Origin: Desulfobacterales bacterium
GTDB taxonomy: Bacteria > Desulfobacterota > Desulfobacteria > Desulfobacterales > SpSt-501
Assembly: GCA_035467535.1 (NCBI GenBank)
Contig: DATITS010000059.1
Coordinates: forward strand, 514-64,513
Length of the DNA: 64,000 nucleotides
Direction: 5' to 3'
Positions 3,239 to 35,445 of this stretch are shown one piece after another (the first letter of the stretch is position 1; every line of letters begins with the position of its first letter). The notes under the pieces were generated by a model. That model made no database searches, was not told the origin of the DNA, and saw only the letters and a program-made list of their open reading frames with translations. The translations under genes and the position numbers were made by a program.

Positions 3239-4024
3239 CTATCGGCGGAAGGGCTGAATCCAGCCGAGACCGTCCTCGGTCTTCCCGGCGGGTTTGTACT
3301 CGCACCCGATCCACCCCTTGTAGCCGGCCGCGTCGATGGCCTTGAAGAGGTTGGGGTAGTTGATCTCGCCGGTTCCGGGCTCGTTCCTTCCGGGGTTGTC
3401 GGCGATCTGGATGTGGGCGATCGAGTCGAGGTTCGCCTGGATGGTCTTGGTCAGGTTCCCCTCCATGATCTGCATGTGATAGGCGTCGTACTGAAAATAG
3501 ACGTTGGGGCTGCCGACCTCTTTGATGAGGGCGAGCACGTCCGCCGTGTGCACCAGGTAAAATCCCGGGACGTCCTTGTCGTTCAAGGCTTCCAAAAGCA
3601 GGCGGATGCCTTCCTTTTCAAAAGCGGAGGCAGCGAACTTCAGGTTGGCGACCAGGGTCTTGCGCACCTTGTCAGCGGGAACGCCGGCAGGGGTGAGTCC
3701 GACCAGACAGTTGACCTGGGGGCACTTCAGGGCCTTGGCGTACTCGATGGCCTTGCCCACCCCCTCCTGGAACTCGGTTTCACGGCCCGGCAGGCAGGCA
3801 ATCCCCCGCTCGCCCTTGTTCCAGTCGCCGGCCGGCAGGTTGTGCAGCACCTGGGTCAGACCGAAGGCGCCGAGCTTTTCCACCAGCTGCTCTTTTTTCC
3901 AGGCATAGGGAAAGAGGTACTCGACGCCCTTGAATCCGGCCTTGGCCGCCTTCTCGAAACGATCCAGGAAGTCCACTTCATTGAACAGCATCGTCAGGTT
4001 CGCGCAAAACTTTGGCATCTTCAT
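3239..4024 (-). CDS. hyi: Hydroxypyruvate isomerase family (xylose-isomerase-like TIM barrel)
   Basis: The 261-aa ORF reads MPKFCANLTMLFNEVDFLDRFEKAAKAGFKGVEYLFPY...HIQIADNPGRNEPGTGEINY...GWIGCEYKP, the classic Hyi/OtnI-type signature. Confidence 0.85.
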   Translation of the reverse strand: MKMPKFCANLTMLFNEVDFLDRFEKAAKAGFKGVEYLFPYAWKKEQLVEKLGAFGLTQVLHNLPAGDWNKGERGIACLPGRETEFQEGVGKAIEYAKALKCPQVNCLVGLTPAGVPADKVRKTLVANLKFAASAFEKEGIRLLLEALNDKDVPGFYLVHTADVLALIKEVGSPNVYFQYDAYHMQIMEGNLTKTIQANLDSIAHIQIADNPGRNEPGTGEINYPNLFKAIDAAGYKGWIGCEYKPAGKTEDGLGWIQPFRR

Positions 4025-4053
4025 TGCTCCTTTTCATTACCCGATGTGACGGG

Positions 4054-4944: not shown

Positions 4945-4946
4945 CT

Positions 4947-5912
4947 CTACCTCCCTTGCTTCGGCGCATTCACCGGCCAGGTCGGGCGCTTGCCGGACAG
5001 CACCTCGTCGATTCCCTGGGCCGCGTGCAGCGCCATGCGGATCATGCACTCCCGTGTCATGGAGGCATTGTGAGGCGTCAAGAGCACGTTGCGCATGCCC
5101 ATCAGCGGGTTGTCCTTCGGAGGGGGTTCCTTTTCGTAGACATCGATGGCGGCCCCGGCAATCGTCCCGTTGCGCAGGGCCTCGATCAGGGCCGCCTCGT
5201 CCACCACGTCGCCCCGCGAGGCATTGATGAAAAAGGCCGTCTTCTTCATGAGGGCGAAGAGCTTCTCGCCGACGACGCCCTTGTTGGAGGCGCCGCCCGG
5301 GATGTGCAGGGTCAGGAAATCAGCGGCGCTGAAAACCGCCTCCAGCGATGCGACGGGGGCGGCGAATTCGGCCATCTGTTCGGGCTTCAGAAACGGATCG
5401 TAGCCGACGACCTTCATGTCGAAACCGCGCGCGGCCTTCAGCGCCACCCGGCGGCCGATCTTGCCCAACCCGACGACGCCGAGCACTTTCCCGGCCAGGT
5501 CCGAGCCGAACAGCTTGTCGCGGATGGGGAAATTGCCGGCCCGGGTCTCCCGGTCCAGCTGGATGAAGTTGCGCGCCAGGGTGAGGATGCAGCCGATGGC
5601 GTGCTCGGCGACCGTGTCGGCGTTGGATTCCGGCGCAAAGGTCACCCATATGCCCAGCTCGGTCGCCTTGGCCACATCGATGTTGTCGTAGCCCACCCCG
5701 TGGCGCGAAATGACCTTGAGTTTCTTGCCGGCCTCGAACACCTTGGCCGGGAAGAGCGCCGTGCGGCCCAGGATGGCGTCGCAGTCGACCACGTCGGCCG
5801 CAATGGCCTCCGCCGTGATGCCGCTGCCCATCTTGATCTCGTACCCCCGCTCGCGCAGGTAGTCCTTGCCCGGCTGGGCCACGTCCTGCGGGATCAACAC
5901 TTTATAAGCCAT
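4947..5912 (-). CDS. D-isomer-specific 2-hydroxyacid dehydrogenase (hydroxypyruvate/glyoxylate reductase or PGDH-like)
   Basis: The NAD fold GVVGLGKIGRRVA is present, along with INASRGDVVDE and TPHNAS. The start MAYKVLIP (ATG 5910-5912) follows GAAGGAGG. Confidence 0.85.
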   Translation of the reverse strand: MAYKVLIPQDVAQPGKDYLRERGYEIKMGSGITAEAIAADVVDCDAILGRTALFPAKVFEAGKKLKVISRHGVGYDNIDVAKATELGIWVTFAPESNADTVAEHAIGCILTLARNFIQLDRETRAGNFPIRDKLFGSDLAGKVLGVVGLGKIGRRVALKAARGFDMKVVGYDPFLKPEQMAEFAAPVASLEAVFSAADFLTLHIPGGASNKGVVGEKLFALMKKTAFFINASRGDVVDEAALIEALRNGTIAGAAIDVYEKEPPPKDNPLMGMRNVLLTPHNASMTRECMIRMALHAAQGIDEVLSGKRPTWPVNAPKQGR

Positions 5913-6006
5913 TTTAGAACCTCCTTCTGACGCTGTTACGGATTGGCGGATCTTGCTGAACCGCGAATGCGAGCGAACCCTGAAAAAGAGCGCATTCCTC
6001 ACGGTC

Positions 6007-6040
6007 GAAGATTGCCTTCAGCTTGCTGCAGGGAATCTTC
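6007..6040. repeat. 34-bp palindrome directly after the aldolase stop; sister copy at 43778-43811
   Basis: GAAGATTGCCTTCAGC-TT-GCTGCAGGGAATCTTC. The right arm matches the right arm of the copy at 43796-43811 in 15 of 16 positions. Confidence 0.6.
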
Positions 6041-6042
6041 AA

Positions 6043-6804
6043 TCAGGCCTTGTACTTTTGGCAGATCGCCTTCAGGCCGGCCGCCAGGATGTTGGTGTCC
6101 AGATTGCTCATGACCAGCGTGAGCCCCTTGGACAGCCAGCGCTCGGTGAGAGGGTCCGGGGAGTGCATGCCGAACATTTTGCCGTGTTTTTTCGCGGCGG
6201 CCGCCACCTTGCCGATGGCCTTGTCCAGGGTGTCGCCCAAGAGGTCGCCGGCGCAGCCCATCGAAATGGCGAGATCGTTGGGCCCGATGAGCAGGGCGTC
6301 GATGCCCGGCACGGCGGCGATCGCATCGATGTTCTCGATGGCCTGGGCGGTTTCAATCTGGGCAATGGCAAGCGTGTCCACATTGGCCTTGGCCATGAAG
6401 GCCGGGGTGGCATCGGGGCTGACCCCGGCGAAGTTGCTGTGACCGCCGGCGCCGCCGAAGCCGCGTCCGCCGAGCGGCGCGTACTTGGACCAGCGCACCA
6501 GCAACTGGGCCTGCTCCACCGATTCGAGCATGGGCACCATGACGCCGGTGGCGCCGCAGTCGAGCGCGCGCGAGACGTAGCCCTTGGCGAGCTCCGGCAC
6601 ACGGACAAAGCAGCCCAAACCGAGCGCCCGGCCCACTTTGAAGACGTCGTCCACCGTTTCCATGGTGTAGGGTCCGTGCTCCAGGTCGAGCATGATGAAA
6701 TCGAGGCCGGCATTGTGCGCCACCACGGCCACGGCGGGATTCTGGATCATGCGCACCATGGTGCCGACAACCCGCTTGCCTTCACGAAGTTTTTGAACAG
6801 CCAT
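6043..6804 (-). CDS. HpcH/HpaI family 2-keto-3-deoxy-acid aldolase (GarL/YfaU-like)
   Basis: MAVQKLREGKRVVGTMV...FIMLDLEHGP...CFVRVP...GVMVPMLES...AIAQIET...IGPNDLA shows the class II aldolase pattern. The start at 6802-6804 follows AAAGGAGAA. Confidence 0.85.
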   Translation of the reverse strand: MAVQKLREGKRVVGTMVRMIQNPAVAVVAHNAGLDFIMLDLEHGPYTMETVDDVFKVGRALGLGCFVRVPELAKGYVSRALDCGATGVMVPMLESVEQAQLLVRWSKYAPLGGRGFGGAGGHSNFAGVSPDATPAFMAKANVDTLAIAQIETAQAIENIDAIAAVPGIDALLIGPNDLAISMGCAGDLLGDTLDKAIGKVAAAAKKHGKMFGMHSPDPLTERWLSKGLTLVMSNLDTNILAAGLKAICQKYKA

Positions 6805-6857
6805 GATATGTTCTCCTTTTTTGCTCAATCTGCTTGAAATGAAATTCTGATATCGAA

Positions 6858-6881
6858 TGCCCCGCAGCTTGCCTCGGGGCA
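6858..6881 (-). terminator. Hairpin immediately downstream of the GntR gene
   Basis: The stems are TGCCCCG (6858-6864) and CGGGGCA (6875-6881) with a 10-nt loop. The hairpin lies 18 nt after the GntR stop on the - strand, and AT-rich sequence follows it. Confidence 0.45.
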
Positions 6882-6898
6882 CGTTTCATTGGGTCTTC

Positions 6899-7558
6899 CT
6901 ACTTATTATTCGAAGATGTTGCGAGCATGCCGGGGTAAAACTGCTCCACGACATGCCGGCAGGTTTCCCGCAAGTGCTCGCGCATCAACTGTTCGCCCTT
7001 TTCTTCGTCCCCCTGAAGCATGGCGTTGATGATGTTGAGATGGGCGTCGGCCGATGCCTTTTCGATGGCCGGCGACCGCTTGGTGATGTTGGCCGTGAGG
7101 AGGGTCAGATTTTCGAGCCTCTCGTTGATATCGGCCATGATGCTGTTGTGCGCGGCATCCATAATGGCCCTGTGAAGCTCGCGGCCGAGCGCGATACCCA
7201 TCATTGGATCGGATTCGATATTGGCCTTGGCGATTTTTTTCTTGATCTCGCGCAGCTTCAAGTGGAACGTCTCGCCGCCCCTGCGGCAGGCCAGCCGAGC
7301 GGCCATGCCTTCGATAGCCTCCCGCGCCTGAAAGATTTCGAAGATCTGTTCAAGGCCGAGTCGGCGCACGACGAAACCGCGGTTGGCTTCCTGTTCCAGG
7401 AAACCGTCGGCCGTGAGCTTCCAGAGAATCTCCCGGATGGGGGTACGGCTCATGCGGTAGGCTTCGCAAAGCTCGCGCTCGATCAACCAATGCCCGGGCG
7501 CGAGCTTCTCCTCGACGATCTGGCGCCGGATATCTCCATAAACCGTATTCTTGTCCAT
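6899..7558 (-). CDS. GntR family transcriptional regulator, FadR/FCD subfamily
   Basis: The winged-HTH region LIERELCEAYRMSRTPIREILWKLTADGFLE is followed by an all-helical FCD domain. The start is either MDKNTVYG (7558) or 7579. Confidence 0.85.
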   Translation of the reverse strand: MDKNTVYGDIRRQIVEEKLAPGHWLIERELCEAYRMSRTPIREILWKLTADGFLEQEANRGFVVRRLGLEQIFEIFQAREAIEGMAARLACRRGGETFHLKLREIKKKIAKANIESDPMMGIALGRELHRAIMDAAHNSIMADINERLENLTLLTANITKRSPAIEKASADAHLNIINAMLQGDEEKGEQLMREHLRETCRHVVEQFYPGMLATSSNNK

Positions 7559-7559
7559 A

Positions 7560-7741
7560 ATGACATTTTTGTATACCAATAGAATTTTTACTTGTCAATT
7601 TATTCTTGACATTAAAATACAATTGACATTATAAAAATTAAATCGTGTCCAGGACAAGGAGAGGCAAAAATATATCGGCGCAAAATGTAATACCCGTGCG
7701 GATATCGGACTAAGGGGCACGCTGCGGAGGTAAGGCGGAAG
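7560..7741. promoter_or_regulatory. AT-rich divergent promoter/operator region between the GntR gene and tctB
   Basis: A GntR-type half-palindrome TTGTATACCAA lies at 7569-7579. An inverted pair TTGTCAAT (7592-7599) / ATTGACA (7622-7628) is present. A TTGACA -35-like hexamer lies at 7606-7611, followed by TATAAA-like sequence. Confidence 0.5.
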
Positions 7742-8194
7742 ATGGCGAAGTGGAATAAAATTGCCGGTTGCGCCCTTTTTGGCATTGGGGCTGCGACAGC
7801 CTGGAGCGCTGCCACGACTCTATCCATGGGAAGCTTTCGCCATCCCGGGGCGGGGTTTCTGCCATTCGGCTTGGCTTGTATCCTGAGCCTGCTCAGCCTG
7901 CCGCTTGTGTTTGAAGCGAGGAAGGAAACAGGCCGGGCCTCGGCCTTTTGGCCGGAACGCACCTGGGTAAGGCCTTTGCAGGGATCCCTGGCCCTTTTCG
8001 CTTACGCCTTTGTCCTGGGCTTGCTTGGATTTATGCTTACCACGTTCCTCTTTATGATAGGATGGACGCGGTTTATGGAAAAGCTTTCCTGGCGGAAGGT
8101 TCTTTTCGTGTCCGCGGGCGTGACTGCGGGGCTGTATCTGGTGTTCGTGTGGTTTCTCGGTGTCCCCGTCCCGATCGGTTTCTGGAAGCGGTAG
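7742..8194 (+). CDS. tctB: Tripartite tricarboxylate transporter small membrane subunit TctB
   Basis: This is a 150-aa protein with 4 predicted TM segments, placed directly before tctA. A GGAGGTAAGG RBS precedes it. Confidence 0.8.
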   Translation: MAKWNKIAGCALFGIGAATAWSAATTLSMGSFRHPGAGFLPFGLACILSLLSLPLVFEARKETGRASAFWPERTWVRPLQGSLALFAYAFVLGLLGFMLTTFLFMIGWTRFMEKLSWRKVLFVSAGVTAGLYLVFVWFLGVPVPIGFWKR

Positions 8195-8206: not shown

Positions 8207-9724
8207 ATGGGCGAACTGTTTGGCATTTTCCAAGGGCTCGCCGAGGGGTTTGGAATTGCCTTCTCGCTGAACAACCTGTTTTTCGCACTAATCGGAGCCC
8301 TTCTGGGCACGATGGTAGGGATTTTACCGGGCCTTGGCCCCTCCGCCACTATTTCCCTCCTCTTGCCGCTGAGTTTCAAGATAGGATCGCCCGTTAGCTC
8401 CATTATCATGATGGCGGGCATCTTTTATGGGGCCATGTACGGTGGCTCCACAACTTCCATCCTCGTCAATATCCCTGGCGAGGCGGCCTCGGTGGTCACC
8501 TGCATTGACGGATATCAAATGGCCAAGAAGGGCAGGGCAGGGCCTGCCTTGGGAATAGCAGCCATCGGATCCTTCATCGCGGGAACCATCGGCGTTATCG
8601 GCCTCACCTTCGTTGCACCCCCCTTGGCGGAGTTCGCCCTGAGCTTCGGTCCGCCGGAGTATTTCTCTCTCACTCTCCTGGGGTTGCTTATGGCAACTCT
8701 CATCGGAGGGGACTCTGTGGTCAAGGGCTTGATCATGGTGGTGGCCGGCCTGCTCATGGGCGCGGTGGGCCTGGATCCAATATCCGGTGCCATCCGATTC
8801 ACCTGGGGCATTCACATGCTTCAGGAGGGGATAGACTTTGTCACCATGGCGATGGGTCTCTTTGGAATTGGCGAAATACTCTTCAACCTGGAGCGGGTCC
8901 TTGTGACAAACTTGGTGACCCGGAAGATCACCCACCTCTGGCCCAGTCTGAAGGATTGGGCCGACTCTAAGTGGGCGATAATCCGGGGCTCATTTATCGG
9001 CTTCTTCATCGGGATCCTCCCGGGCGGGGGGGCCGTCATTTCCTCACTGGCCTCTTATGCCGTAGAGAAAAAAATGTCCAAAAACCCCCAGGAGTTCGGG
9101 AAAGGGGCAATCCAAGGGGTGGCCGGCCCGGAATCCGCGAACAATGCGGCTGCCAGCGCATCCTTCATCCCGCTGTTGACTCTCGGCATCCCTGGCAATG
9201 CAGCAATCGCCATGATTTTTGCGGCCTTGTTGATTCAAGGGGTTACGCCGGGGCCTTTCCTCATCAGCGAAAAGCCGGATATTTTCTGGGGGGTGATCGC
9301 CTCCATGTACATCGGCAACGCCATGCTGCTGATCTTGAACCTTCCCCTGGTGGGTGTGTGGGTACAACTCCTGAGGGTGCCATACTCAATCCTGGCCCCG
9401 GTGATCGTGCTGTTCTGTTGCGTAGGGGTTTACAGCTCCCGCAACTCCGCTTTCGACATCTGGGTCATGGGGGTCTTCGGCGTGATCGGCTACTTCCTGC
9501 GAAAACTGGAATTCGAACCCGGCCCCATGATCCTGGCCTTTGTTTTAGGACCTATCCTGGAAAACGGATTGAGGCAGTCCTTGCTCATGTCGGCTGGAAG
9601 CCCGCTTATATTTGTCTCCCGCCCCATCTCAGGATCGTTGATCGCTATCTTGGTCCTCTTCATCCTGACTCAAGTCGTTTTACGGTTGGCTTGGAAAAAA
9701 CCAGGGGCCGCATCCGGGCGCTGA
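8207..9724 (+). CDS. tctA: Tripartite tricarboxylate transporter large permease TctA
   Basis: The 505-aa polytopic protein contains GILPGLGPSATISLLLP, YGGSTTSILVNIPGE and EKKMSKNPQEFGKGAIQGVAGPESANNA, all typical of TctA. Confidence 0.9.
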   Translation: MGELFGIFQGLAEGFGIAFSLNNLFFALIGALLGTMVGILPGLGPSATISLLLPLSFKIGSPVSSIIMMAGIFYGAMYGGSTTSILVNIPGEAASVVTCIDGYQMAKKGRAGPALGIAAIGSFIAGTIGVIGLTFVAPPLAEFALSFGPPEYFSLTLLGLLMATLIGGDSVVKGLIMVVAGLLMGAVGLDPISGAIRFTWGIHMLQEGIDFVTMAMGLFGIGEILFNLERVLVTNLVTRKITHLWPSLKDWADSKWAIIRGSFIGFFIGILPGGGAVISSLASYAVEKKMSKNPQEFGKGAIQGVAGPESANNAAASASFIPLLTLGIPGNAAIAMIFAALLIQGVTPGPFLISEKPDIFWGVIASMYIGNAMLLILNLPLVGVWVQLLRVPYSILAPVIVLFCCVGVYSSRNSAFDIWVMGVFGVIGYFLRKLEFEPGPMILAFVLGPILENGLRQSLLMSAGSPLIFVSRPISGSLIAILVLFILTQVVLRLAWKKPGAASGR

Positions 9725-9764: not shown

Positions 9765-10751
9765 ATGATAAAGTTGACATCTCGTCTAACGGTGTTGATT
9801 CTGGTGGTCTTCCTGGCGGGGCTCGCGGCAGGGCCGGCCGCATTTGCAGCGGACAAGTACCCCTCCAAACCCATCGAATTGGTCGTTCCCTTCTCTGCCG
9901 GCGGTTCGACGGACGTAATGGCTCGGCTCGTTGCCAAGTTTGCACCCAAACATTTCGATCAGCCCCTGGTGGTCGTCAATAAACCGGGCGGCGGAGGGAT
10001 TACCGGGACGGAAGGTGTGGTGCGATCCGCACCAGACGGCTACTCTCTCTTTGTCGGGTATGGATCGGGCCACGATTTAGTGACCCCCCACTTCCAGAAG
10101 TTGCCCTATGATACCTTCGGGGATCTGGTACCGGTGAGCCGCATTTCCGTACATTCCATCGTGGCGGTCGTTCGTTCGGACGCCCCCTACAAAACCCTCA
10201 AGGAGTTCTTGGCATGGGGCAAGAAAAAGGACCAAGTGACCGCTGCCGTGTCCACTAAAGCGGGGTCGGTTGATATCACGTTTCAGGCGCTGGCGAAGGC
10301 CAGTGGCGTCAATATCGTCACAATCCCTTTTAAGGGTGGAGCTGACGCCGTCAGGACGATCCTGGGCGGCCAAACAGATATCGGAGGCAACCACCCCTCG
10401 GAGATCATGAGCCACATCAAGGCCGGCCGGCTGGTCCCCGTTGGGGTGGCGCTGGAGGAGAGAGATCCCTCCCTCCCCAATGTGCCAACCTTCAAGGAAC
10501 TCGGCTATGACGTGGTGACCGTGGGCTCGGTCAAGGGGGTTGCGGCTCCCAAGGGGACCCCTCCAGAAGTTGTGAAGTATCTGGCAGAGCGGTTTAAAAA
10601 GGTCTGTGAGGACAAGGAATTCATTGCAGCCATGACGGAGATCGGCCAGCCGGTGATGTATCAAGGGCCGCAAGCGTTCGGCAAGTACCTCAAAGACGGC
10701 TTCGACACCTACGGGAAGCTGATCAAGGAATTTAACATCAAGATGGAATAG
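9765..10751 (+). CDS. tctC: TTT substrate-binding protein TctC (Bug family)
   Basis: A signal peptide is followed by YPSKPIELVVPFSAGGSTDVMARL, VNKPGGGG and IPFKGGADA. Confidence 0.9.
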   Translation: MIKLTSRLTVLILVVFLAGLAAGPAAFAADKYPSKPIELVVPFSAGGSTDVMARLVAKFAPKHFDQPLVVVNKPGGGGITGTEGVVRSAPDGYSLFVGYGSGHDLVTPHFQKLPYDTFGDLVPVSRISVHSIVAVVRSDAPYKTLKEFLAWGKKKDQVTAAVSTKAGSVDITFQALAKASGVNIVTIPFKGGADAVRTILGGQTDIGGNHPSEIMSHIKAGRLVPVGVALEERDPSLPNVPTFKELGYDVVTVGSVKGVAAPKGTPPEVVKYLAERFKKVCEDKEFIAAMTEIGQPVMYQGPQAFGKYLKDGFDTYGKLIKEFNIKME

Positions 10752-10790
10752 GCGGAAGACCCGATTCCGCTGCCATTGATGGAACTGATT

Positions 10791-10849
10791 CGCGCGGACC
10801 CCGGAAAAGGCCATGAGGAACTGCACGGGATCCGCGCGGATTGTTTTCT
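10791..10849 (+). terminator. Hairpin plus T-run between tctC and the corrinoid fusion gene (attenuator or partial terminator)
   Basis: The stems are CGCGCGGACCC (10791-10801) and GGGATCCGCGCG (10827-10838), followed by GATTGTTTTCT. The AAGGAG RBS of the next gene follows immediately. Confidence 0.5.
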
Positions 10850-10860
10850 AAGGAGATTAC

Positions 10861-12822
10861 ATGCCGCTGACCCACAAGCAGCGGATGCTTATGGCTGTGC
10901 AAGGCGACTTGCCGGATGAGCTTCCGTATGCCCCCCGCATCGATCTGTGGTACAACGCAAACCTTGCTGCCGGAACCTTGCCTGAGAGACACCGCGGCCG
11001 CACGGCGGACGAGATCGTTTTGGCCGAAGGATGGGCGCTGCACAAGGTGGTGGCGGATCACTTGCGCCAACCCCGCGCGGATGCAATGCTGCACCGAGCA
11101 TTAGGGGTGCATTTCTTGAAGGAGTACGTTGCGCACTTTATATTCACCAAGCGAGTGAAAATCGATGTGCTGCGTGAAGGCGACCGCACGCGCATCCGCT
11201 ACACCACCGCCAAGGGATCCATCAACACCAGCACCGTTTACAGCCAGGAAATGCGGCGCTCTGGCACCTCCGTCCCCTGGATTGAAGAGCATGCCGTCAA
11301 AACACCGGATGATATAGATGTGCTGGCCAGTGTGTTTGAAAATATAGACGTCGTGCCAAATTACGAGACGTTTAAGACCCACGAGACGCAAGTAGGCGAG
11401 AACGGCTTGCCGGTTACCGCCTTCACCGTAGCAGCCGGGCCTGTTCACCATATCCAGAAATACTTTTTGGGTGCGACCGAATTCTTCAATTATTACCACG
11501 ACCACCAGCCTAAACTGCTCCGCCTCGCCGAGGCACTGTCCCCCTTGTATGAAAAGGCATTGCACATCGTCGCAGAATCCCCAGCCCGCGTTATCCAATG
11601 GGGGTCCAACTTCGACGATATGCTCACATTTCCTCCGATGTTCGAGAAACATTTCCTGCCCTGGATCCGGAAAGCCAAAGAGGTGTTAAGTCCTAAAAAC
11701 ATCCGAGTCCTCTGCCATACCGACGGTGAGAACAACGGGCTGATGGACCTTCTGCATGATTCAGGGATGGACGTTGCCGAGGCGGTCTGCCCGGCGCCCA
11801 TGACCAAGGTCACCATCCAGGAGTACTATCGGCGCTGGAGCGATCGGATCACCATTTTCGGCGGAGTGCCCTCCAATCTGCTTCTGCCGCAGCTTACCCC
11901 CGATGAGCAATTTAACAGTTTCATGGATGGGCTTTTCTCCGGCATAGGCGATGGGCGCAGGTTCATCCTTGGCATAGCGGACACCACGCCGCCGGATGCC
12001 GACTTCGAGCGGCTGGTCCGTATCGGCGAGATGGCCCGGGAGAGGGGGCGCCTGCCCCTGAAGGCCGGTTCATTCAACCCGGTTGACCCCGCGGCGGTCG
12101 CCGGGGTGCTTGCAGAAAAGGAATCTGCGGTATCGGACTTGCAAGATACCCGGTTTGCACAAATACGGCGGGCGGTCCTCGAGGGCCGGGAACAGGATCT
12201 CATCGGAGAGGTCCAGGAACTCCTGTTAAAGAAAACCGCCCCCAAGGATATCATCGATCAGGGAATGGTCGCTGCTATGGAAAGCCTCAACGCGTCGTTC
12301 AAAAACGGCACTGTCTTCATACCGGAAGTGCTGGCAGCCGCTCGGGCTATGAATGCGGCCGTGCTCTTTCTGGAACCGCATCTTACTGAAAAAGAAAAAA
12401 ACAGGGGAGGCAAAATCCTGATCGGCACGGTCAAGGGTGACCTTCACGACATCGGTAAAAACATGGTTGCGACCATGCTGCGCGGCGTCGGGTTCAACGT
12501 GACCGACTTGGGGATCAACATTAGCGCCGATCTCTTCGCCAAGAAAATTGCCGAGGAACGCCCGCAGGTCCTGGGGTTGTCCGCTCTGCTCACCACCACC
12601 ATGCCGGAGATGGGCAAGGTCCTGGAAGCGCTTGATAAGGCTGGTTTGAGAAACTCGGTGAAAGTCATGGTTGGTGGAGCCCCGGTAAACGCTCGATTTG
12701 CACGAGATATCGGAGCGGATGGTTACGGCCGCGACGCAGCCGCGGCCGTTGAGGTGGCTAGGGCGCTAGTTGCTGAATCCGCATTTCTTGAGACGAAGGC
12801 CGCAGTGCCGGCCAGGGGATGA
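10861..12822 (+). CDS. Fusion protein: URO-D-like (MtaA/CmuA-superfamily) domain plus B12-binding corrinoid domain
   Basis: The 653-aa protein has a C-terminal part of about 210 aa with a B12-binding_2 helical cap and a Rossmann B12 domain carrying the D-x-H-x-x-G signature (GTVKGDLHDIGKN), plus SALLTTTMP and MVGGAPV. The N-terminal part of about 420 aa resembles uroporphyrinogen-decarboxylase-fold methyltransferases (GSNFDDMLTFPPMFEKHFLPW, VLCHTDGEN, ITIFGGVPSNLL). Confidence 0.75.
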   Translation: MPLTHKQRMLMAVQGDLPDELPYAPRIDLWYNANLAAGTLPERHRGRTADEIVLAEGWALHKVVADHLRQPRADAMLHRALGVHFLKEYVAHFIFTKRVKIDVLREGDRTRIRYTTAKGSINTSTVYSQEMRRSGTSVPWIEEHAVKTPDDIDVLASVFENIDVVPNYETFKTHETQVGENGLPVTAFTVAAGPVHHIQKYFLGATEFFNYYHDHQPKLLRLAEALSPLYEKALHIVAESPARVIQWGSNFDDMLTFPPMFEKHFLPWIRKAKEVLSPKNIRVLCHTDGENNGLMDLLHDSGMDVAEAVCPAPMTKVTIQEYYRRWSDRITIFGGVPSNLLLPQLTPDEQFNSFMDGLFSGIGDGRRFILGIADTTPPDADFERLVRIGEMARERGRLPLKAGSFNPVDPAAVAGVLAEKESAVSDLQDTRFAQIRRAVLEGREQDLIGEVQELLLKKTAPKDIIDQGMVAAMESLNASFKNGTVFIPEVLAAARAMNAAVLFLEPHLTEKEKNRGGKILIGTVKGDLHDIGKNMVATMLRGVGFNVTDLGINISADLFAKKIAEERPQVLGLSALLTTTMPEMGKVLEALDKAGLRNSVKVMVGGAPVNARFARDIGADGYGRDAAAAVEVARALVAESAFLETKAAVPARG

Positions 12823-14138
12823 AAAACGCTATGCAAATTTTATCGAATACCATCGATCGATTGGTGGGGGATGTTCCCATCCCCCGCGTCGTGAAGGTCC
12901 GGCAGAAGTTCGAGCGGCCCTTCATAGCGGATGTTGAAGCAGCGGTTTTAGACCGGCTGCACAGCTCGCGCGTTCTCGACGCTGTGCGACCGGGTATGCG
13001 CATCGCCGTCGGCGTCGGGAGCCGGGGGATCGCCAACCAGCCGCTTGTCGTAAGGCTCTTGGTGAGCCAACTCAAGGCCAAGGGGGCCGAACCGTTCATC
13101 TTCCCCGCCATGGGCAGCCACGGCGGGGCCACGGCGGAAGGGCAGCAGGACCTTCTTGCTCGCACGGGCGTCACGGAGCAGGCCATGGGAGCCCCCATCC
13201 GTTCCACCATGGACGTGGTCGACATGGGAACGGCTGAAAACGGGCTTACGGCATGGTTTGACGCGTATGCCGCCGCGGCGGACGGCATCGTGCTGGTGAA
13301 CCGGATCAAACCCCATGTCTCCTTCAGGGGCCAATACGAGAGCGGCCTGATGAAAATGATCGCCATCGGGCTCGGCAAGCAGAAAGGCGCAGAGGCCAGC
13401 CACCAGCTGGGCATGGAGCGTATGCTCGAAAACATCGTGGCGGTTGGTCGTAAGGCACTTGCGACCGGGAAAATCCTTTTCGGGATCGCCTTGGTCGAGA
13501 ACGCTTACCATGAGACCTGTCGCATCGAGGCCGTCCCCGCCCATCGCATCGAGGAGGAGGAAGTCGCGCTCCAGGCGGAAGCCAAACGACTGGAACCGAG
13601 GATCCTCTTCGACCGCTTGGATGTCCTCATCATCGATGAAATCGGCAAGAACATCTCGGGGACCGGCTTTGACAACAACGTCGTGGGCCGTTACCACCTG
13701 CCGCACATGAAATCCGAAGGCCCCTTCATCACGCGCATCTGCGTTCTGGACATCACCGATGCCTCGCACGGCAACGGCAACGGCCTGGGCATCGTCGACT
13801 TCACCACCGAGCGGGCCTTCCGGAAATTCAGCTTCGAGGAGACCTACCCCAACGCTCTTACCTCCACCGTGCTGGCGAGCGTCAAAATCCCCATGGTGCT
13901 AAAAACCGACCGACTGGCCATCCAGGCGGCAATCAAAACCTGCAATATTGCGGACTTCCGGAACGTGAGGTTGGGGCGCATCAAGAACACCCTCGAGGCC
14001 CACCTGCTGGAGATCTCGGAAAACCTTCTTGATGGGGCCCGGGCAAACCCCGGCATCGATATCCTTTCCGAACCTTACGAACTGGCTTTCAACGCGGAAG
14101 GAAGCCTCCCGGGAGGCGCTCCGGTTTCTCAGCCCTGA
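12819..14138 (+). CDS. LarA_N/DUF2088 (lactate-racemase-domain) family protein, copy 1
   Basis: The 439-aa protein has the blocks FPAMGSHGGAT, DGIVLVNRIKPHVSFRGQYESGLMKMI, ENAYHET and LDVLIIDEIGKNISGTGFD. Its ATG overlaps the upstream stop (ATGA). A paralogue lies at 40303..41571. The family assignment is from memory of the LarA N-terminal architecture and is not exact. Confidence 0.65.
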   Translation: MKNAMQILSNTIDRLVGDVPIPRVVKVRQKFERPFIADVEAAVLDRLHSSRVLDAVRPGMRIAVGVGSRGIANQPLVVRLLVSQLKAKGAEPFIFPAMGSHGGATAEGQQDLLARTGVTEQAMGAPIRSTMDVVDMGTAENGLTAWFDAYAAAADGIVLVNRIKPHVSFRGQYESGLMKMIAIGLGKQKGAEASHQLGMERMLENIVAVGRKALATGKILFGIALVENAYHETCRIEAVPAHRIEEEEVALQAEAKRLEPRILFDRLDVLIIDEIGKNISGTGFDNNVVGRYHLPHMKSEGPFITRICVLDITDASHGNGNGLGIVDFTTERAFRKFSFEETYPNALTSTVLASVKIPMVLKTDRLAIQAAIKTCNIADFRNVRLGRIKNTLEAHLLEISENLLDGARANPGIDILSEPYELAFNAEGSLPGGAPVSQP

Positions 14139-14154: not shown

Positions 14155-15510
14155 CTATAGGCTTCTTTTCCGACCCGGTGTGTGCGTGCGGATGAACTCC
14201 GCGAGCACATGGTCCAGATCGGGCTGCCCGATCTCCTGCAGGTTGTAATAAACGCGCGTGCTCGGTTTCTTGATCGTAACGATGCGCTTCAGGTCGATGG
14301 GGGTGCCGATCACCACCGCATCACATTCGGTGCGGTTGATGGTGGCTTCCAGGTCCTTGAGCTGCCGGGTTCCGTAGCCCATGGCGGGCAGCACCGCGCC
14401 GATGCCCGGGTACATCCGGAACGTCTCCTTGATCCGTCCCACCAGATACGGCCGGGGGTCGACAAGCTCCGCCGCCCCGAACTTGCGCGCCGCCACTACC
14501 GCCGCCCCGATTTTCATCCCGCCGTGGGTCAGCGTCGGCCCGTCTTCCACGGCCAGAACCCGCCTGCCCCGGACCACGGCCGGGTTGTCCATTTCGAGCA
14601 CCGAGGCGGCGTCGATGACGACCGCCTTCGGGTTGACCGCTGCGATGTTCCGGCGCACGGCATCGATGCCGGCGGAATCGGCGCTGTCGATCTTGTTGAT
14701 CACCACCACGTCGGCCAGCCTCAGGGTGACGTTGCCCGGGTAGTAGCACATCTCGTGCCCCGGCCGGTGGGGGTCCACCACGGTCACGTGCAGGTCGGGC
14801 TTGTAAAAGGGAAAGTCGTTGTTGCCGCCGTCCCAGAGAATCACGTCGCACCCCTTGGGGTCGTTCTCGGCCGCACGCAGGATGGCCTCGTAGTCCACCC
14901 CGGCATAAATAACGTTGCCGCGCACGACATGAGGCTCGTACTCCTCCATCTCCTCGACCGTGCACTTGCGTTTCGCCAGATCGCTGATCCTGGAAAACCG
15001 CTGCACCTTCTGGGCGGCAAGGTCGCCGTAGGGCATGGGATGGCGCACGGCCACCACCTTCAACCCTTTGGCCATGAGGATTTCGATGATGCGCCGCGCG
15101 GTCTGGCTTTTGCCGCACCCGGTGCGCACCGCACCCACCGAGATCACGGGCCTGGCACTCTTCAGCATGGTGGCCTTCGGCCCCGGCAGCACGAAGTTGG
15201 CACCCGCCGCCTGCACGACGGCAGCGACGTTCATGACGTGCTGGTAGGAGACGTCGCTGTAGGAGAACACGCAATCGCTCACGTCGAAGGCACGGATCAG
15301 CTTGGGCAAGTCGGCCTCGGGGTGGATGGGGATCCCCTTGGGGTAGAGCTTTCCCGCCAAGGCCGCCGGATAGTTGCGCCCGGCGATGTCGGGGATCTGG
15401 GCCGCAGTGAAGGCGACCACCCGTTGACTGTCGTCGTCGCGATAGACCGTGTTGAAGTTGTGAAAATCGCGTCCGGCAGCACCGATAATGACTACATTTT
15501 TGCGCTTCAC
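14155..15510 (-). CDS. COG2403-type GTPase (cyclic 2,3-diphosphoglycerate-synthetase-like)
   Basis: The 451-aa protein starts VVIIGAAGRDFHNFN and has a P-loop, GAVRTGCGKSQTA. This family is commonly found next to carbamate kinase and OTC genes. Confidence 0.7.
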   Translation of the reverse strand: MKRKNVVIIGAAGRDFHNFNTVYRDDDSQRVVAFTAAQIPDIAGRNYPAALAGKLYPKGIPIHPEADLPKLIRAFDVSDCVFSYSDVSYQHVMNVAAVVQAAGANFVLPGPKATMLKSARPVISVGAVRTGCGKSQTARRIIEILMAKGLKVVAVRHPMPYGDLAAQKVQRFSRISDLAKRKCTVEEMEEYEPHVVRGNVIYAGVDYEAILRAAENDPKGCDVILWDGGNNDFPFYKPDLHVTVVDPHRPGHEMCYYPGNVTLRLADVVVINKIDSADSAGIDAVRRNIAAVNPKAVVIDAASVLEMDNPAVVRGRRVLAVEDGPTLTHGGMKIGAAVVAARKFGAAELVDPRPYLVGRIKETFRMYPGIGAVLPAMGYGTRQLKDLEATINRTECDAVVIGTPIDLKRIVTIKKPSTRVYYNLQEIGQPDLDHVLAEFIRTHTPGRKRSL

Positions 15511-16457
15511 GCGTTCTCCCTTTCGGTTGGCCCGTAAACTTCCGTCCCTGCCTCGCCGGCGACGGCTTGCGCGATCTCCTCCAGGTGACAGATGATGCCG
15601 CGGCCCCCGGAGGCTTTCACAAACCGGGTGATGGCTTCCACCTTGGGGCCCATGGAGCCGGCCGGGAAATGGCCCTCGGCCGAGTAGCGCTCCATCTCGG
15701 CCGCGGGAACTTTCCTCAATACCCGCTGCTCCGGCTTGCCCCGGTGGACGGATGCCCCGGACACATCCGAGGCGATGAGGAAGAGATCCGCCTTGATTTC
15801 GCTTGCGAGCACCGCGCTGGCGAGGTCCTTGTCGATGACGGCATCCACCCCTCTGAATTTGCGCTCTTTGCGGACCACCGGGATGCCCCCGCCGCCGCAG
15901 CAGATGACGATGAACTCCATCTCGATCAACTTCTTGATCTCGCGATGCTCGACAATTGCGAGCGGTGTGGGGCTCGCCACGACGCGCCGGAAGCCTTTGT
16001 CCGTCTTGACCATGGTGTAGGGCAAACGTCCGGCCTGCTCCTCGGTGTAGGCGGGACCGATGGGCTTGGTGGGGTTCTGAAACGCCGGGTCTTTCTCGTC
16101 AACCACGACATAGGAGATCAGCGAGATGAACAGTTGCTCCGTGGTGACACCCATCTCCATCAGCGCCCGGTCGAGGCTGGATTCGATCATGTAGCCGATC
16201 TGACCCTGGGTCATGGCGACGATGATCTCGAGCGGCATGTCGGGCACCTCGCGGCAGCTCTCCTGCTGCAGGAGCAGGTTGCCCGCCTGAGGGCCGTTGC
16301 CGTGGGTGATCACGATGCGGTAATCACGCGACAGGCAGGCAATCTGACGCATGGGCACCTTCAGGTTCGCGAACTGCTCCTCGACCGTGCCCTTCTGGCC
16401 TTTCTGAATCAGGGCGTTGCCGCCCAAGGCGATCAACATGAGTGGTTTTATCGACAT
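15507..16457 (-). CDS. arcC: Carbamate kinase
   Basis: LIALGGNAL, ITHGNGPQAGNLLLQ, CCGGGGIPV and GHFPAGSMGPKVEA are carbamate kinase signatures. Confidence 0.9.
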   Translation of the reverse strand: MSIKPLMLIALGGNALIQKGQKGTVEEQFANLKVPMRQIACLSRDYRIVITHGNGPQAGNLLLQQESCREVPDMPLEIIVAMTQGQIGYMIESSLDRALMEMGVTTEQLFISLISYVVVDEKDPAFQNPTKPIGPAYTEEQAGRLPYTMVKTDKGFRRVVASPTPLAIVEHREIKKLIEMEFIVICCGGGGIPVVRKERKFRGVDAVIDKDLASAVLASEIKADLFLIASDVSGASVHRGKPEQRVLRKVPAAEMERYSAEGHFPAGSMGPKVEAITRFVKASGGRGIICHLEEIAQAVAGEAGTEVYGPTERENA

Positions 16458-16471
16458 GGCTGATAGATAAC

Positions 16472-16557
16472 GGATGCTCGATACGCGATGCTGGATGAAT
16501 AGGATTGCCAGCGAAGAGCCGCTGCGGCCTTAATCTCTTATCGCGTATCGGGCATCC
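16472..16557. repeat. 18-bp inverted repeat inside the OTC-carbamate kinase spacer
   Basis: GGATGCTCGATACGCGAT (16472-16489) pairs with ATCGCGTATCGGGCATCC (16540-16557) at 17 of 18 positions. The loop of about 50 nt contains a small GCCGC/GCGGC hairpin. Confidence 0.55.
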
Positions 16558-16593
16558 AGAATCTCGCATCGCGCGCAGCGCTTTATCGGCGCG

Positions 16594-17595
16594 CTAAGCG
16601 CCGATAGTTGCCACCATCACCGCCTTGATCGTGTGCAGACGGTTCTCGGCCTGGTCGAAGACGATCGCGGCCGGCGACTCGAAGACATCGTCCGTCACCT
16701 CCATGGACGCGAGGCCGAACTTTTTAAATATGGCTTCACCGATCTCCGTCTGCCGGTCGTGAAAGGCCGGCAGGCAGTGCAGGAATTTGACGTTGGGGTT
16801 TCCGGTTTTCTCCATGGCCGCCCGGTTCACCTGGTAGGGCTTGAGCAGCCGGATGCGCTCCTCCCAAACCTCTTCGGGCTCCCCCATGGACACCCAGATA
16901 TCGGTGTACAGGAAATCACAGCCGGCACACCCGCTAGACAGGTCATCGGTGATCGTGATCCGCGCCCCGGTCCCCTTGGCGATCTCGCGGGCCCGGGCCA
17001 CCAGCTCAGCAGTGGGATGAAGCGCTTTGGGCGCGACTGCACGGTAATCCATGCCCGTCTTGGCGGCGGCGATCAGAAGCGAGTTGGCCACGTTGTTGCG
17101 CCCGTCGCCCAGGAAGGCGAAGGCCACCTGCTTCAGGGGCTTGGCGCTGTGTTCCAGCATGGTGAGCAGATCCGCCAGTGCCTGGGTCGGGTGGAACTCG
17201 TTGGTCAGCCCGTTCCACACAGGCACCCCGGCGTACGTTGCCAGTTCCTCTATTCTTGCCTGCTCAAAGCCGCGGTACTCGATGCCGTGGTACATGCGTC
17301 CCAGCACCCGGGCCGTGTCCCGGATGGACTCCTTCTTCCCGAGCTGGGAGCCGGTGGGGTCCAGGTAGGTCACGCGGGCGCCCTGGTCGTAAGCCGCGAC
17401 CTCAAAGGCGCAGCGCGTGCGGGTGGAGGTCTTCTCGAAGATGAGCGCAATGTTCTTGCCGGTGAGCCGCTGCGGCTCGGCCCCGGCGTATTTGGCTCTC
17501 TTTAATTCCGCCGCCAGCTGCAGCAGATAAGAGATCTCTTCCGGTGTAAAATCCAGGAGCTTTAAAAAGTGACGGTTTTGAAACTGCAACGCCAT
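16594..17595 (-). CDS. argF: Ornithine carbamoyltransferase
   Basis: [29 protein letters not shown] and HCLPAFH are present. The start [11 protein letters not shown] (ATG 17593-17595) follows GAGGGAGG; the track's longer start is rejected. A catabolic (arcB-like) role is possible given the adjacent arcC. Confidence 0.9.
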
Positions 17596-17661
17596 ATCGC
17601 ATCCTCCCTCATTTAGGCGAATAAACGGACAAGCGCCATCTTGCCGTGGAAACAACCCTGA

Positions 17662-19446: not shown

Positions 19447-20418
19447 CTATTTTCTGTCCTCCGTGCGATCGGTAGCCGGCGGCGGCGCAGGCGCGAGCGA
19501 CGACAGGCGCGCGTAAAGCTCGTCGGTCATTGGGATTTCGGGGGCGATCAGCGCCGGCTCGATCTGGGCAACACTGCGGGCGCCGATGATGGGGCAGCTC
19601 ACCGCCGGGTGGTGCGCCGCCCAGGCGACGGCCAGGCTCACCGGCGAGATCCCGACCTCGTCCGCGACGACTTTCAGCCGCTGAGCCGCCTCGTACATCC
19701 AGTCTGCTGCGTAGCGCCGGGTGTACGTGGCGTTCTCGGAAAGCCTGCCAGCGCCGTCGGCCGGCGTGCGGCCGTATTTCCCGGTCAGCAAGCCCCCGCC
19801 CAGCGGGTTGTAGGCCATCACGCCCATGCCCGCATCGAGCGCCAGGGGAAGCAGCTCGACCTCGGCCTGCCGCTTCACCAGGTTGTACATGGGCTGCATG
19901 ACCCGGATGGCGCTCAGGCCGCACAGGGCGCTGGTGCCGAGGGCCTTGGCGATCTGCCACGCCGCCCAGTTGCTGACGCCCAGATACCGCACCTTGCCCT
20001 GCTGGATCAGCGTGTCGAAGGCGCGCAGCGTTTCCTCGATGGGGACAAGCGTGTCGAACCGGTGGGCGAAGTACACGTCGATCCAGCCCGTGTTGAGCCG
20101 CCGCAGGCTCTGCTCACACTGCTGGATGAGATGCCGCCGGGACAGCCCTTCCTGGTTGGGCCCCGCTCCCATCGACCCGCCGACCTTGGTGGTGACGATC
20201 AGCTGCTCGCGCTCCTCGGGGATGATCTCGCCCAGGATGCGCTCCGCCTCTCCGCTGGAGTAAACGTTGGCGCAGTCGAAAAAATTGATGCCGGCCTCGC
20301 GGCAGCGACGGTAGATGGCCTCGCTCGCCTTGCGGTCGGCTTCTTTCCCGAAAGTCATGGTCCCCAGGCAAAGCTCCGAGACCTTGAGCCCGGTGGTCCC
20401 CAGGTTGACGTACTTCAT
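19447..20418 (-). CDS. Aldo/keto reductase
   Basis: MKYVNLGTTGLKVSELCLGTMTFG...GINFFDCANVYSSGEAE...YLGVSNWAAWQ. Confidence 0.9.
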   Translation of the reverse strand: MKYVNLGTTGLKVSELCLGTMTFGKEADRKASEAIYRRCREAGINFFDCANVYSSGEAERILGEIIPEEREQLIVTTKVGGSMGAGPNQEGLSRRHLIQQCEQSLRRLNTGWIDVYFAHRFDTLVPIEETLRAFDTLIQQGKVRYLGVSNWAAWQIAKALGTSALCGLSAIRVMQPMYNLVKRQAEVELLPLALDAGMGVMAYNPLGGGLLTGKYGRTPADGAGRLSENATYTRRYAADWMYEAAQRLKVVADEVGISPVSLAVAWAAHHPAVSCPIIGARSVAQIEPALIAPEIPMTDELYARLSSLAPAPPPATDRTEDRK

Positions 20419-35431: not shown

Positions 35432-35445
35432 CTTCTATAGCGTTT

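Follow-up and report, generated by a model that had tools for sequence, protein, structure and literature searches.

A candidate UroD-fold methyltransferase::corrinoid fusion, coupled to a nickel-pincer isomerase homologue behind a carboxylate importer in a Desulfobacterales bacterium

What does a protein do that carries a uroporphyrinogen decarboxylase (UroD)-like domain and a complete corrinoid module in one chain, and why does its gene run directly into that of a nickel-pincer isomerase homologue? The question is raised by a 64,000-nucleotide stretch of DNA from a Desulfobacterales bacterium (contig DATITS010000059.1; the whole stretch is called the window here), in which the fusion gene (10861-12822) and a LarA-family gene (12819-14138) follow the genes of a carboxylate importer. 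On balance we think it probable that the fusion is a CmuA-like joining of methyltransferase I (MT I) and its corrinoid protein (CP), from an undescribed branch of the UroD superfamily, which demethylates an imported methylated hydroxy-carboxylate, and that the LarA group-22 homologue inverts the C2 hydroxyl of the substrate or product for stereospecific downstream enzymes. UroD-superfamily methyltransferases, corrinoid modules, LarA isomerases, tripartite tricarboxylate-type (TTT) importers and the principle of an MT I::CP fusion are already known. The novelty lies in the fusion family, which lacks both a characterised member and a curated model of its N-terminal domain, in the variant of its metal site, in its consistent link to carboxylate uptake and, above all, in its recurrent coupling to nickel-pincer isomerases. 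The two genes and the parts of the fusion are as follows.

10861-12822, + strand: fusion gene, 653 aa, ATG start with AAGGAG seven nucleotides 5'; UroD-fold domain from residue 1 to ~400, linker ~400-430, B12-binding_2 cap 433-503, B12-binding Rossmann domain 517-630
10861-12060, + strand: N-terminal domain, predicted UroD-fold TIM barrel (AlphaFold2 and Foldseek) with an extra four-stranded beta insertion at residues ~91-143
11713-11733, + strand: first half of the candidate metal/substrate site, C285-H286-T-D288-G-E290-N291, at the C-terminal end of beta strand 282-287
11779-11799, + strand: second half of the candidate site, E307-A-V-C310-P-A-P313, at the end of beta strand 305-309
12439-12456, + strand: D-x-H-x-x-G motif D527-L-H529-D-I-G532 (in GDLHDIGKN), the motif of base-off/His-on cobalamin binding
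12819-14138, + strand: homologue of the LarA-superfamily group 22 isomerases dependent on the nickel-pincer nucleotide (NPN), 439 aa, NF052515

The initial annotation, made from the sequence alone, had described a URO-D-like::corrinoid fusion with a complete corrinoid module, and the open reading frame (ORF), the Pfam domains and all of the motifs were found where it had placed them. Both B12 domains scored above their Pfam gathering scores (B12-binding_2, PF02607, 54.7 bits, residues 433-503; B12-binding, PF02310, 102.6 bits, residues 517-630), and a weak but significant URO-D match covered residues 136-393 (PF01208, 34.0 bits against a gathering score of 23.9). The corrinoid motifs D-x-H-x-x-G, S-x-L (SALLTTT) and G-G (VGGAP) are intact in the translation. 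NCBIfam matches were confined to the C-terminal third of the protein and were led by MtgC (208 bits) and pyl_corrinoid (179 bits), then MtbC, MetH and MtaC, whereas adenosylcobalamin mutases and CarH scored far lower than these methyl-carrier proteins. When the PDB was searched by sequence, the module matched the Moorella corrinoid protein 1y80 with 245 bits, and MtaC was also matched. Judged by its sequence, then, the C-terminal module is a corrinoid module of the methyltransferase type, as had been proposed.

No PDB chain gave a meaningful sequence match to residues 1-430, either with the single sequence or with a 40-sequence profile; the N-terminal domain was placed by fold comparison only. 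An AlphaFold2 model of residues 1-430, built from the family alignment, was confident (pLDDT 87.7, pTM 0.85), and Foldseek matched the domain to the UroD structures 2eja, 1uro and 1j93 with E = 5e-10, probability 1.0, TM-scores of 0.55-0.62 and 12-14% identity; the runner-up was the zinc enzyme MetE. The UroD fold that had been proposed was thus found again by Foldseek as well as by Pfam. The domain as a bona fide UroD/HemE was rejected, as the hemE model (TIGR01464) gave no match for the fusion at E <= 0.01, identity to UroD is only 12-14% and the genomic context is one of transport and catabolism rather than haem synthesis. The domain is best described, from sequence and model, as a highly diverged TIM barrel of the UroD superfamily.

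The classical MtaA zinc motif H-x-C...C, whose replacement had been suspected, is absent from the fusion, which has H-x-D...E..C in the alignments, whereas MtaA-type neighbours in related loci keep H-x-C...C (LHVCGNC...GPEC). No variation at H286, D288, G289, E290 or N291 was seen among 40 sequences, and in a set of 75 each is conserved to at least 90%; E307, P311 and P313 are invariant in the close set of 40 sequences, C310 is at least 90% conserved, and C285 and C310 are nearly invariant. In the AlphaFold2 model the conserved residues of both halves map to the C-terminal ends of two barrel strands, the position at which TIM-barrel active sites lie. We take the C-H-x-D-G-E-N / E-x-x-C pair, on alignment and model, as a candidate metal or substrate site replacing the H-x-C of MtaA. 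Its H-x-D-G-[DE] motif is common to the fusion and to stand-alone 'U5-type' URO-D proteins encoded beside corrinoid proteins; the N-terminal domain matches stand-alone U5-type URO-D methyltransferases of related operons (BLASTP E = 1e-13), with the fusion site aligned to their H-S-D-G-D and C310 opposite U5-type D270. A differing chemistry, at which the initial annotation had hinted on the strength of this motif, is not needed, since a CmuA-like MT I::CP role explains the data.

A protein search with the fusion returned 1368 matches, the best 120 of which form a continuous series from 93% to 52% identity, mostly ~636 aa long and of the same architecture; a URO-D domain N-terminal to a corrinoid module is kept in 75 full-length homologues. 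An exhaustive HMM search with the N-terminal domain found 1494 relatives, stand-alone ~395-aa versions among them. With the same domain as query and one genome per species scanned, 401 loci encoding a relative were found, of which the best 79 lie almost all in Desulfobacterota metagenome-assembled genomes, with a few in Burkholderiales, Hyphomicrobiales and Acetobacteraceae; several genomes carry two or three fusion paralogues. The locus counts below refer to these best 79 of 401 loci (individual loci are cited by number, e.g. L028), with a denominator of 78 or 77 where the fusion was not placed in one or two of them. Locus ORFs were classified by phmmer against reference proteins of Pfam/NCBIfam-checked identity, and antisense shadow ORFs were filtered out of the all-against-all clustering of locus ORFs before it was used. 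The neighbours were counted as follows.

TRAP or TTT importer: 43 of ~78 loci
MtaA/CmuA-type URO-D methyltransferase: 37 of ~78 loci
Separate corrinoid protein, ~214 aa: 26 of ~78 loci
Methyl-tetrahydrofolate (methyl-THF):corrinoid methyltransferase (NF005719, 360 bits): 22 of ~78 loci
GntR regulator: 20 of ~78 loci
RACo activase (Fer2 + Raco_middle + RACo_C_ter): 19 of ~78 loci
DUF1638 protein: 17 of ~78 loci

MFS importers also occur beside fusion paralogues. All four components of a corrinoid methyl-transfer system, i.e. MT I, CP, methyltransferase II (MT II) and activase, are found together in paralogous loci including L043, L053, L054, L061, L024 and L050. The first four of these are the most telling: they share the order GntR, MtaA-type methyltransferase, pterin-binding methyltransferase, DUF1638, RACo, fusion, MFS importer, and their sole corrinoid domain is that of the fusion. 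In these loci, then, the methyl carrier of a complete system has to be the fusion, which leaves its N-terminal domain as the remaining, substrate-side methyltransferase. A second, independent U5-type URO-D::corrinoid fusion (590-600 aa, ~595) shares operons with the family, usually just before DctPQM (L019, L031, L041, L042, L050, L051, L055, L057, L060, L071 and L074), so joining MT I to its carrier evidently recurs. DUF1638 very often lies immediately 3' of the fusion paralogue and is frequently followed by RACo (L024, L031, L039, L050, L052, L057, L060, L062-L064 and L074); it may be a dedicated accessory of these systems.

The closest orthologues (76-83% identity) are those of L006-L011 and L016. 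On one side of these loci the order is AP_endonuc_2, DHDPS, 2HADH, HpcH, GntR, and on the other it is fusion, TctB, TctA, TctC (in some a second TctC), a 351-aa URO-D protein with H-S-C-G-D-C, and LarA group 22. The window differs from them in that the fusion lies 3' of tctC and abuts the LarA gene, and in that the 351-aa URO-D protein is missing, as it likewise is from L008; in the window it has been lost or is encoded elsewhere. RACo, DUF1638, pterin-binding methyltransferase and MtaA-type genes are found neither in these orthologous loci nor in the window. The description of the fusion as stand-alone consequently holds within the 64 kb, where phmmer with reference proteins found no second URO-D methyltransferase, pterin-binding methyltransferase, RACo activase or DUF1638, but not for the family, whose members occur in complete four-component systems and whose orthologues carry the 351-aa H-x-C URO-D protein. 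A 648-aa ORF at 28815-30761 was considered as a fusion paralogue and rejected; it is a PrpR-type sigma-54 activator.

The TGA stop of the fusion (12820-12822) overlaps the ATG at 12819 of the next gene as ATGA, as annotated. This partner, previously noted only as a DUF2088 or racemase-fold protein, is a LarA-family member of group 22: it scores 526.5 bits against NF052515 ('nickel pincer cofactor-dependent isomerase, group 22'; cut-off 400) over positions 1-390 of 392, and also matches Pfam Lar_N (32 bits). Alignment to the LarA structure 9eid and to published group-22 sequences showed that the equivalents of LarA R75, H108, H174, K184 and H200 are kept (SRG, AMGSHGG, IKPH, SGLMK and ASH). The substrates of LarA enzymes are alpha-hydroxy acids, and LarA homologues may catalyse other hydride-mediated reactions; group 22 was listed as 'Unknown function' in 2020, in a context of SDRs (short-chain dehydrogenases/reductases), ILVD/EDD dehydratases, TRAP transporters, sugar kinases and glucuronate isomerase with no B12 or URO-D COG (Desguin 2020, PMC7583248). 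The residues around the second catalytic His differ between the homologues.

PHVS: window gene 12819-14138
PHVA: second group-22 gene of the window, 40303-41571
PHTD: published group-22 members
EHTE or EHSE: LarA homologues of TRAP-type loci

This variation after the second His indicates subgroups with different substrates. In L007, L011 and L016 it is a 'PHVA' paralogue, not 'PHVS', that lies beside the fusion locus. The second group-22 gene of the window (- strand, NF052515 532.7 bits) lies inside a second TTT operon at 34502-43495 (- strand), with tctC (39248-40261), tctB (38699-39187) and tctA (37154-38686). The operon also encodes a dehydratase of the ILVD/EDD family (35446-37131), an aldolase resembling RraA (34502-35230), an alcohol dehydrogenase that is Zn-dependent (41666-42754) and a regulator of the GntR type (42791-43495); it fits the published sugar-acid context of group 22 and holds no B12 gene. 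An aldo-keto reductase gene (19447-20418, - strand, PF00248, 238 bits) lies 5 kb from the LarA gene; some aldo-keto reductases use the nickel-pincer cofactor in place of NAD(P)H (2026 paper, PMC13524815).

The pairing of the fusion with LarA is conserved in other genomes. Of 77 loci, 23 carry at least one LarA homologue no farther than 10 kb from the fusion, with 33 such genes in 1.29 Mb. These accompany at least four sequence clusters of the fusion, in varied gene orders and with different transporters, and the NPN-binding and catalytic residues are kept in all of them. The arrangements are these.

Fusion then group 22, with a 4-nt stop/start overlap: window
Group 22 then fusion: L028 and L077 (4-nt overlap), L080 (1-nt overlap)
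Fusion then canonical LarA: L005, L028
Fusion, DUF1638, LarA: L031, L050, L074
Group 22 and canonical LarA in one operon: L024, L028, L046-L049, L058, L065, L068

In all complete loci of the window's clade the fusion, GntR, the TTT importer and a group-22 gene occur together. With the background set generously at 10 LarA genes per 4000 genes, the binomial probability of at least 23 of 77 loci with LarA by chance is ~1e-12, but the loci are phylogenetically non-independent, and the variety of gene orders is therefore a stronger argument than the P value. A literature search found no report of a B12/nickel-pincer linkage, of the fusion family or of the gene pairing, in line with the earlier impression that no described system has this combination; cobalamin, corrinoid and URO-D go unmentioned in the LarA superfamily literature that was searched. 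The truly unusual element of the locus is thus the recurrent nickel-pincer isomerase partner.

The remaining genes of the locus supply the importer and a divergent catabolic operon.

7742-8194, + strand: tctB, 79 bits (Pfam)
8207-9724, + strand: tctA, 541 bits (Pfam)
9765-10751, + strand: tctC, 181 bits (Pfam)
10782-10849, + strand: stem-loop and U-rich tail in the 109-nt spacer between tctC and the fusion; stem ~10782-10846, then UUGUUUUCU
6899-7579, - strand: divergent GntR/FCD regulator, beside the fusion also in orthologous loci
6043-6882, - strand: HpcH/HpaI aldolase, divergent catabolic operon
4947 to ~5912, - strand: D-2-hydroxyacid dehydrogenase, divergent catabolic operon
4054 to ~4944, - strand: DHDPS-family lyase, divergent catabolic operon
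3239-4024, - strand: AP_endonuc_2 TIM-barrel isomerase/dehydratase, hydroxypyruvate-isomerase-like, divergent catabolic operon

The tctBAC genes, confirmed by Pfam upstream of the fusion, adjacent to one another and in the same direction as the fusion, are by sequence those of a TTT carboxylate importer; when TctC was compared with structures, only generic Bug-family matches appeared, with no clue to the ligand. The divergent operon (3239-6882, - strand) is kept with the fusion clade, and the identical set occurs in L002, L006-L011 and L016. The hairpin with a T-run that had been noted in the spacer is a real structure (-44.1 kcal/mol, z = -3.6 against shuffles), but would be a putative terminator at most: the consensus terminator scan did not call it, because its loop is too long, and transcript contigs cross it. 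It may be an attenuator or an RNA-stabilising element. These metatranscriptome contigs, which come from close relatives in estuary samples (90-97% identity) and in one ice sample (~99%), have a similarly low depth over tctBAC, the spacer behind it, the fusion gene and the LarA gene, and one of them (12735-13042) spans the ATGA junction. They are consistent with a single transcript and with read-through of the hairpin, though the contigs are strandless and metatranscriptomes can contain DNA. Near-identical DNA was found in soil, freshwater, sediment, wetland and rhizosphere metagenomes.

Several further features of the window lie outside this operon. A third importer locus (43843-49362, - strand) holds TRAP DctPQM (~46104-49362), a PanB-like ketopantoate hydroxymethyltransferase homologue (43843-44709, 346 bits), a 225-aa protein that has no Pfam match and a 4Fe-4S protein; PanB-like genes, whose products use methylene-THF, lie beside fusion paralogues in six loci (L018, L020, L026, L027, L034 and L055). 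An operon at 14155-17655 (- strand) lies convergent to the LarA gene on its 3' side. Its products are a 451-aa protein that matches CobW/HypB/UreG no more than marginally (20.9 bits), an AA_kinase resembling carbamate kinase (15507-16457) and a carbamoyltransferase of the OTCase family (16594-17655), a set suggestive of a catabolic module for carbamoyl transfer; the first two genes are also on an 11-kb ENA contig (L001). The ORF at 2197-3081 (- strand) covers only positions 149-367 of the 375 of the Pyridoxal_deC profile and is possibly a truncated or frameshifted pyridoxal-phosphate decarboxylase gene; next comes a gene of the Asp/Glu racemase family (1451-2158), which is kept in L002. Farther away, 53725-57772 (- strand) encodes an HpaB-family protein (resembling 4-hydroxyphenylacetate hydroxylase / 4-hydroxybutyryl-CoA dehydratase) and a 2-oxoacid:ferredoxin oxidoreductase of three subunits, as would fit an organism that lives anaerobically.

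The TTT, TRAP and MFS importers and the GntR/FCD regulators point to an organic acid as the substrate. In L028 and L077 the binding proteins of the TRAP importers are nearest to the Thermus thermophilus lactate-binding protein (208 and 171 bits) and also resemble keto-acid binders, and a glycerate kinase gene lies 3' of the fusion in four termite-gut-type 'Adiutrix' loci. Together the importers, binding proteins, glycerate kinase, divergent operon and LarA suggest a methylated alpha-hydroxy-carboxylate, either a small acid or an acid sugar. We name no substrate, because these hints do not discriminate between 4-O-methylglucuronate, O-methylglycerate, methoxyacetate, methylthio-hydroxyacids and sarcosine. 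The neighbours of two methyltransferase operons, namely a GCV_T::SHMT fusion (serine hydroxymethyltransferase; 887 aa) with gcvH, gcvPA, gcvPB and lpd in L005 (13254-21908) and an HdrA/MvhD/HdrD-like set with gcvH in L028 (13314-18426), suggest that the methyl group, once harvested, goes into a glycine/serine or methylene-THF route.

The mechanism that we propose is that in its host, presumably an anaerobic soil or sediment bacterium, the locus would serve as a catabolic module for a methylated, most likely O-methylated, alpha-hydroxy-carboxylate. The acid would be imported by TctBAC. The N-terminal domain, acting as MT I, would then put the methyl group of the substrate on the Co(I) of its own base-off/His-on corrinoid module, a predicted activity that the architecture and family context lead us to expect. 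The methyl group would next pass to tetrahydrofolate by an MT II, and a RACo-type activase would re-reduce oxidised cofactor; as these two lie beside paralogues and not in the window, they must come from elsewhere in the genome. Finally the translationally coupled LarA group 22 homologue, with NPN, would act on the substrate, or on the product left after demethylation, and invert its C2 hydroxyl, with the predicted result that the D-2-hydroxyacid dehydrogenase, the HpcH- and DHDPS-type aldolases/lyases and the TIM-barrel isomerase could degrade the acid.

Several points weigh against this proposal. We infer methyl transfer by the fusion and its direction, cobalamin binding, the metal site and its content, the substrate class and the role of LarA from sequence, model and context. 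The fusion does not match TIGR01463 (mtaA_cmuA; cut-off 235.4 bits), on which the L028 gene at 4883-6010, included for comparison, scored 237.8 bits, and neither CdmB (9rui) nor MtaA (4ay7), both in the PDB library, was matched by the sequence or profile of the N-terminal domain; with such extreme divergence, a different chemistry on the UroD scaffold is possible. The window and at least one orthologous locus, L008, have no MT II, activase or separate URO-D partner within reach, for which the simplest explanation is that partner functions are encoded elsewhere, as is common for activases. Many operons hold a complete MT I/CP/MT II set besides the fusion, which makes a specific role of the fusion harder to assign there. 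The LarA counts carry the non-independence already mentioned, and no larB, larC or larE was found among the window ORFs scanned. Lastly, the glycerate kinase, hydroxypyruvate-reductase-like dehydrogenase, serine hydroxymethyltransferase and glycine-cleavage neighbours could serve assimilation of C1 or methyl carbon, not breakdown of the skeleton.

The rival that survives best keeps methyl transfer but gives it another role, either MT II-like methylation of a thiol or carboxylate acceptor or demethylation of a carboxylate whose methyl group sits on S or N (a methylthio-hydroxyacid or a sarcosine-like compound, for example) instead of an O-methyl ether. It draws on the presence in the UroD superfamily of the MT II enzymes MtaA and MtbA and the bifunctional MtsA, and on the fused MtsD, MtsF and MtsH of Methanosarcina; in many loci the U5-type URO-D and the corrinoid protein could act as MT I and CP, and glycine-cleavage and SHMT genes adjoin the methyltransferase operons of L005 and L028. 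However, the MtaA-type partners, and not the fusion, have the thiol-type zinc motif H-x-C...C, and in L043, L053, L054 and L061 the pterin-binding and MtaA-type methyltransferases cover MT II, leaving MT I::CP to the fusion. N-methyl substrates are normally handled by MttB-family enzymes, and none were seen. We therefore hold this role to be unlikely, if not negligibly so.

A bolder alternative, to which we give a low probability, is a demethylase with two organometallic cofactors, in which the LarA homologue and the fusion act in one complex on the same O- or S-methylated hydroxy-acid. NPN would transiently oxidise the alpha-hydroxyl to a ketone, activating the aliphatic methyl ether or thioether for attack by Co(I), and the hydride would then be returned; the LarA homologue would be a catalytic partner in demethylation rather than a downstream epimerase. 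Simple Co(I) attack on aliphatic ethers is poor, which counts in favour of such activation, as do the stop/start overlaps, which occur both with the fusion first (window) and with LarA first (L028, L077 and L080). Group 22 has had no assigned racemase substrate since 2020, Desguin 2020 allows LarA homologues other hydride-mediated reactions (PMC7583248), and an enzyme with NPN-dependent intermolecular hydride transfer is now known, although it is an aldo-keto reductase and no LarA homologue (PMC13524815). Set against these, 54 of 77 fusion loci have no LarA gene within 10 kb, transporter genes separate the fusion and LarA in the closest orthologues, and both catalytic histidines typical of true racemases are kept.

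Slightly more doubtful still is mere coincidence, or a link no closer than a shared pathway, in which LarA group 22 serves ordinary sugar-acid catabolism with the TTT importer and the divergent operon while the fusion is a passenger, perhaps a remnant. The published context of group 22 consists of just such genes (ILVD/EDD dehydratase, TRAP, sugar kinases, glucuronate isomerase) and no B12 genes (PMC7583248), the second group-22 gene of the window (40303-41571) lies in such a locus with no B12 gene, and the URO-D partner of the orthologues is absent from the window. Yet the pairing occurs in at least four fusion clusters with varied transporters and gene orders, the fusion keeps company with GntR, TTT and a group-22 gene in every complete locus of its clade, and the fusion ORF is intact, highly conserved across the 93% to 52% identity series and transcribed. 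That the N-terminal domain is not a methyltransferase at all, but a UroD-like decarboxylase or other TIM-barrel enzyme with a B12 module for regulation or radical/isomerase chemistry, we consider very improbable: its best structural matches are true UroD enzymes, not MtaA, and it matches no characterised methyltransferase by sequence, but identity to UroD is 12-14% with no hemE HMM match, a cap domain is present, the module scores best against methyl-carrier proteins and not adenosylcobalamin mutases or CarH, and the RACo, DUF1638 and methyl-THF methyltransferase neighbours of its relatives make sense for methyl-Co chemistry only.

If the fusion is indeed an MT I::CP for imported acids, its significance extends beyond this locus. 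The family is large (401 loci), often with several paralogues per genome, mostly in Desulfobacterota of soil, groundwater, sediment and termite gut. It occurs in classical methyl-transfer operons yet beside carboxylate importers, and therefore probably marks methylated organic acids as methyl donors of anaerobes, a class that may feed, so far unrecognised, into the carbon flow of C1 metabolism and sulfate reduction. The pairing provides a functional lead for LarA group 22, brings two rare organometallic cofactors, the nickel-pincer nucleotide and cobalamin, into one operon, and probably marks an undescribed route for the removal of methyl groups from hydroxy-acids. If the two-cofactor mechanism were true, O-methylated acid sugars or small methoxy-acids could serve anaerobes as sources of methyl groups, and no enzyme has been described for this class of substrates or for this partnership of cofactors. 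Both proteins are enzymes of soluble type for which established assays exist, i.e. Co(I)/CH3-Co(III) spectroscopy for the one and NPN loading with capillary electrophoresis for the other.

Among known systems the closest in architecture is CmuA, the chloromethane:corrinoid methyltransferase of Methylobacterium and Hyphomicrobium, which likewise has an N-terminal UroD-superfamily MT I and a C-terminal corrinoid domain in one chain. CmuA has Gln at the position of the cobalt-ligating His, whereas the fusion keeps the His; the fusion also differs in having no match to the MtaA/CmuA model TIGR01463 and in its context of carboxylate importers, GntR and LarA homologues rather than cmuBC and folate genes, and its substrate, unlike that of CmuA, is almost certainly not a halomethane. 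CmuA does the work of both MT I and corrinoid protein and depends on CmuB as a separate MT II (PMC13222342).

The four components of the anaerobic O-demethylase systems MtvABC, OdmABCD, VdmB and MtoABCD and of CdmBCA, i.e. UroD-superfamily MT I, CP, MT II to (methano)pterin and RACE/RACo, correspond to the gene set around the fusion paralogues. Their MT I proteins are of 420-430 aa, that of CdmB being a TIM barrel with extensions, similar to the 400-aa N-terminal domain with its beta insertion. In these systems, however, MT I and CP are separate proteins, the substrates are aryl methyl ethers or haloalkanes and a LarA partner is undescribed; the H-x-D...E..C metal motif is that of the fusion, and no sequence similarity was detected between its N-terminal domain and CdmB (9rui). 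MtaA, MtbA and MtsA of Methanosarcina are likewise UroD-superfamily corrinoid methyltransferases, and MtsD, MtsF and MtsH are natural corrinoid/methyltransferase fusions; the MtaA type differs in its zinc motif H-x-C...C, found in the MtaA-type genes of related loci and absent from the fusion, and coenzyme M is unexpected in these bacteria.

The type 1 mlp clusters of Kountz & Balskus resemble the present loci as widespread uncharacterised clusters of UroD-superfamily corrinoid methyltransferases in anaerobes, often with no folate methyltransferase in the cluster, but they are mostly from Firmicutes, the Mlp proteins are close to MtaA/MtbA, and no MT::CP fusion, LarA or carboxylate importer is found there (PMC10418091); the fusion family and the mlp clusters are different families. 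LarA group 22, finally, is the described family of the partner: the window protein lies above the NF052515 cut-off, keeps the catalytic residues and has TRAP/TTT importers as published, whereas the published context is one of sugar-acid genes and not B12 methyltransferases, and the specificity loop after the second His reads PHTD there and PHVS here (PMC7583248).

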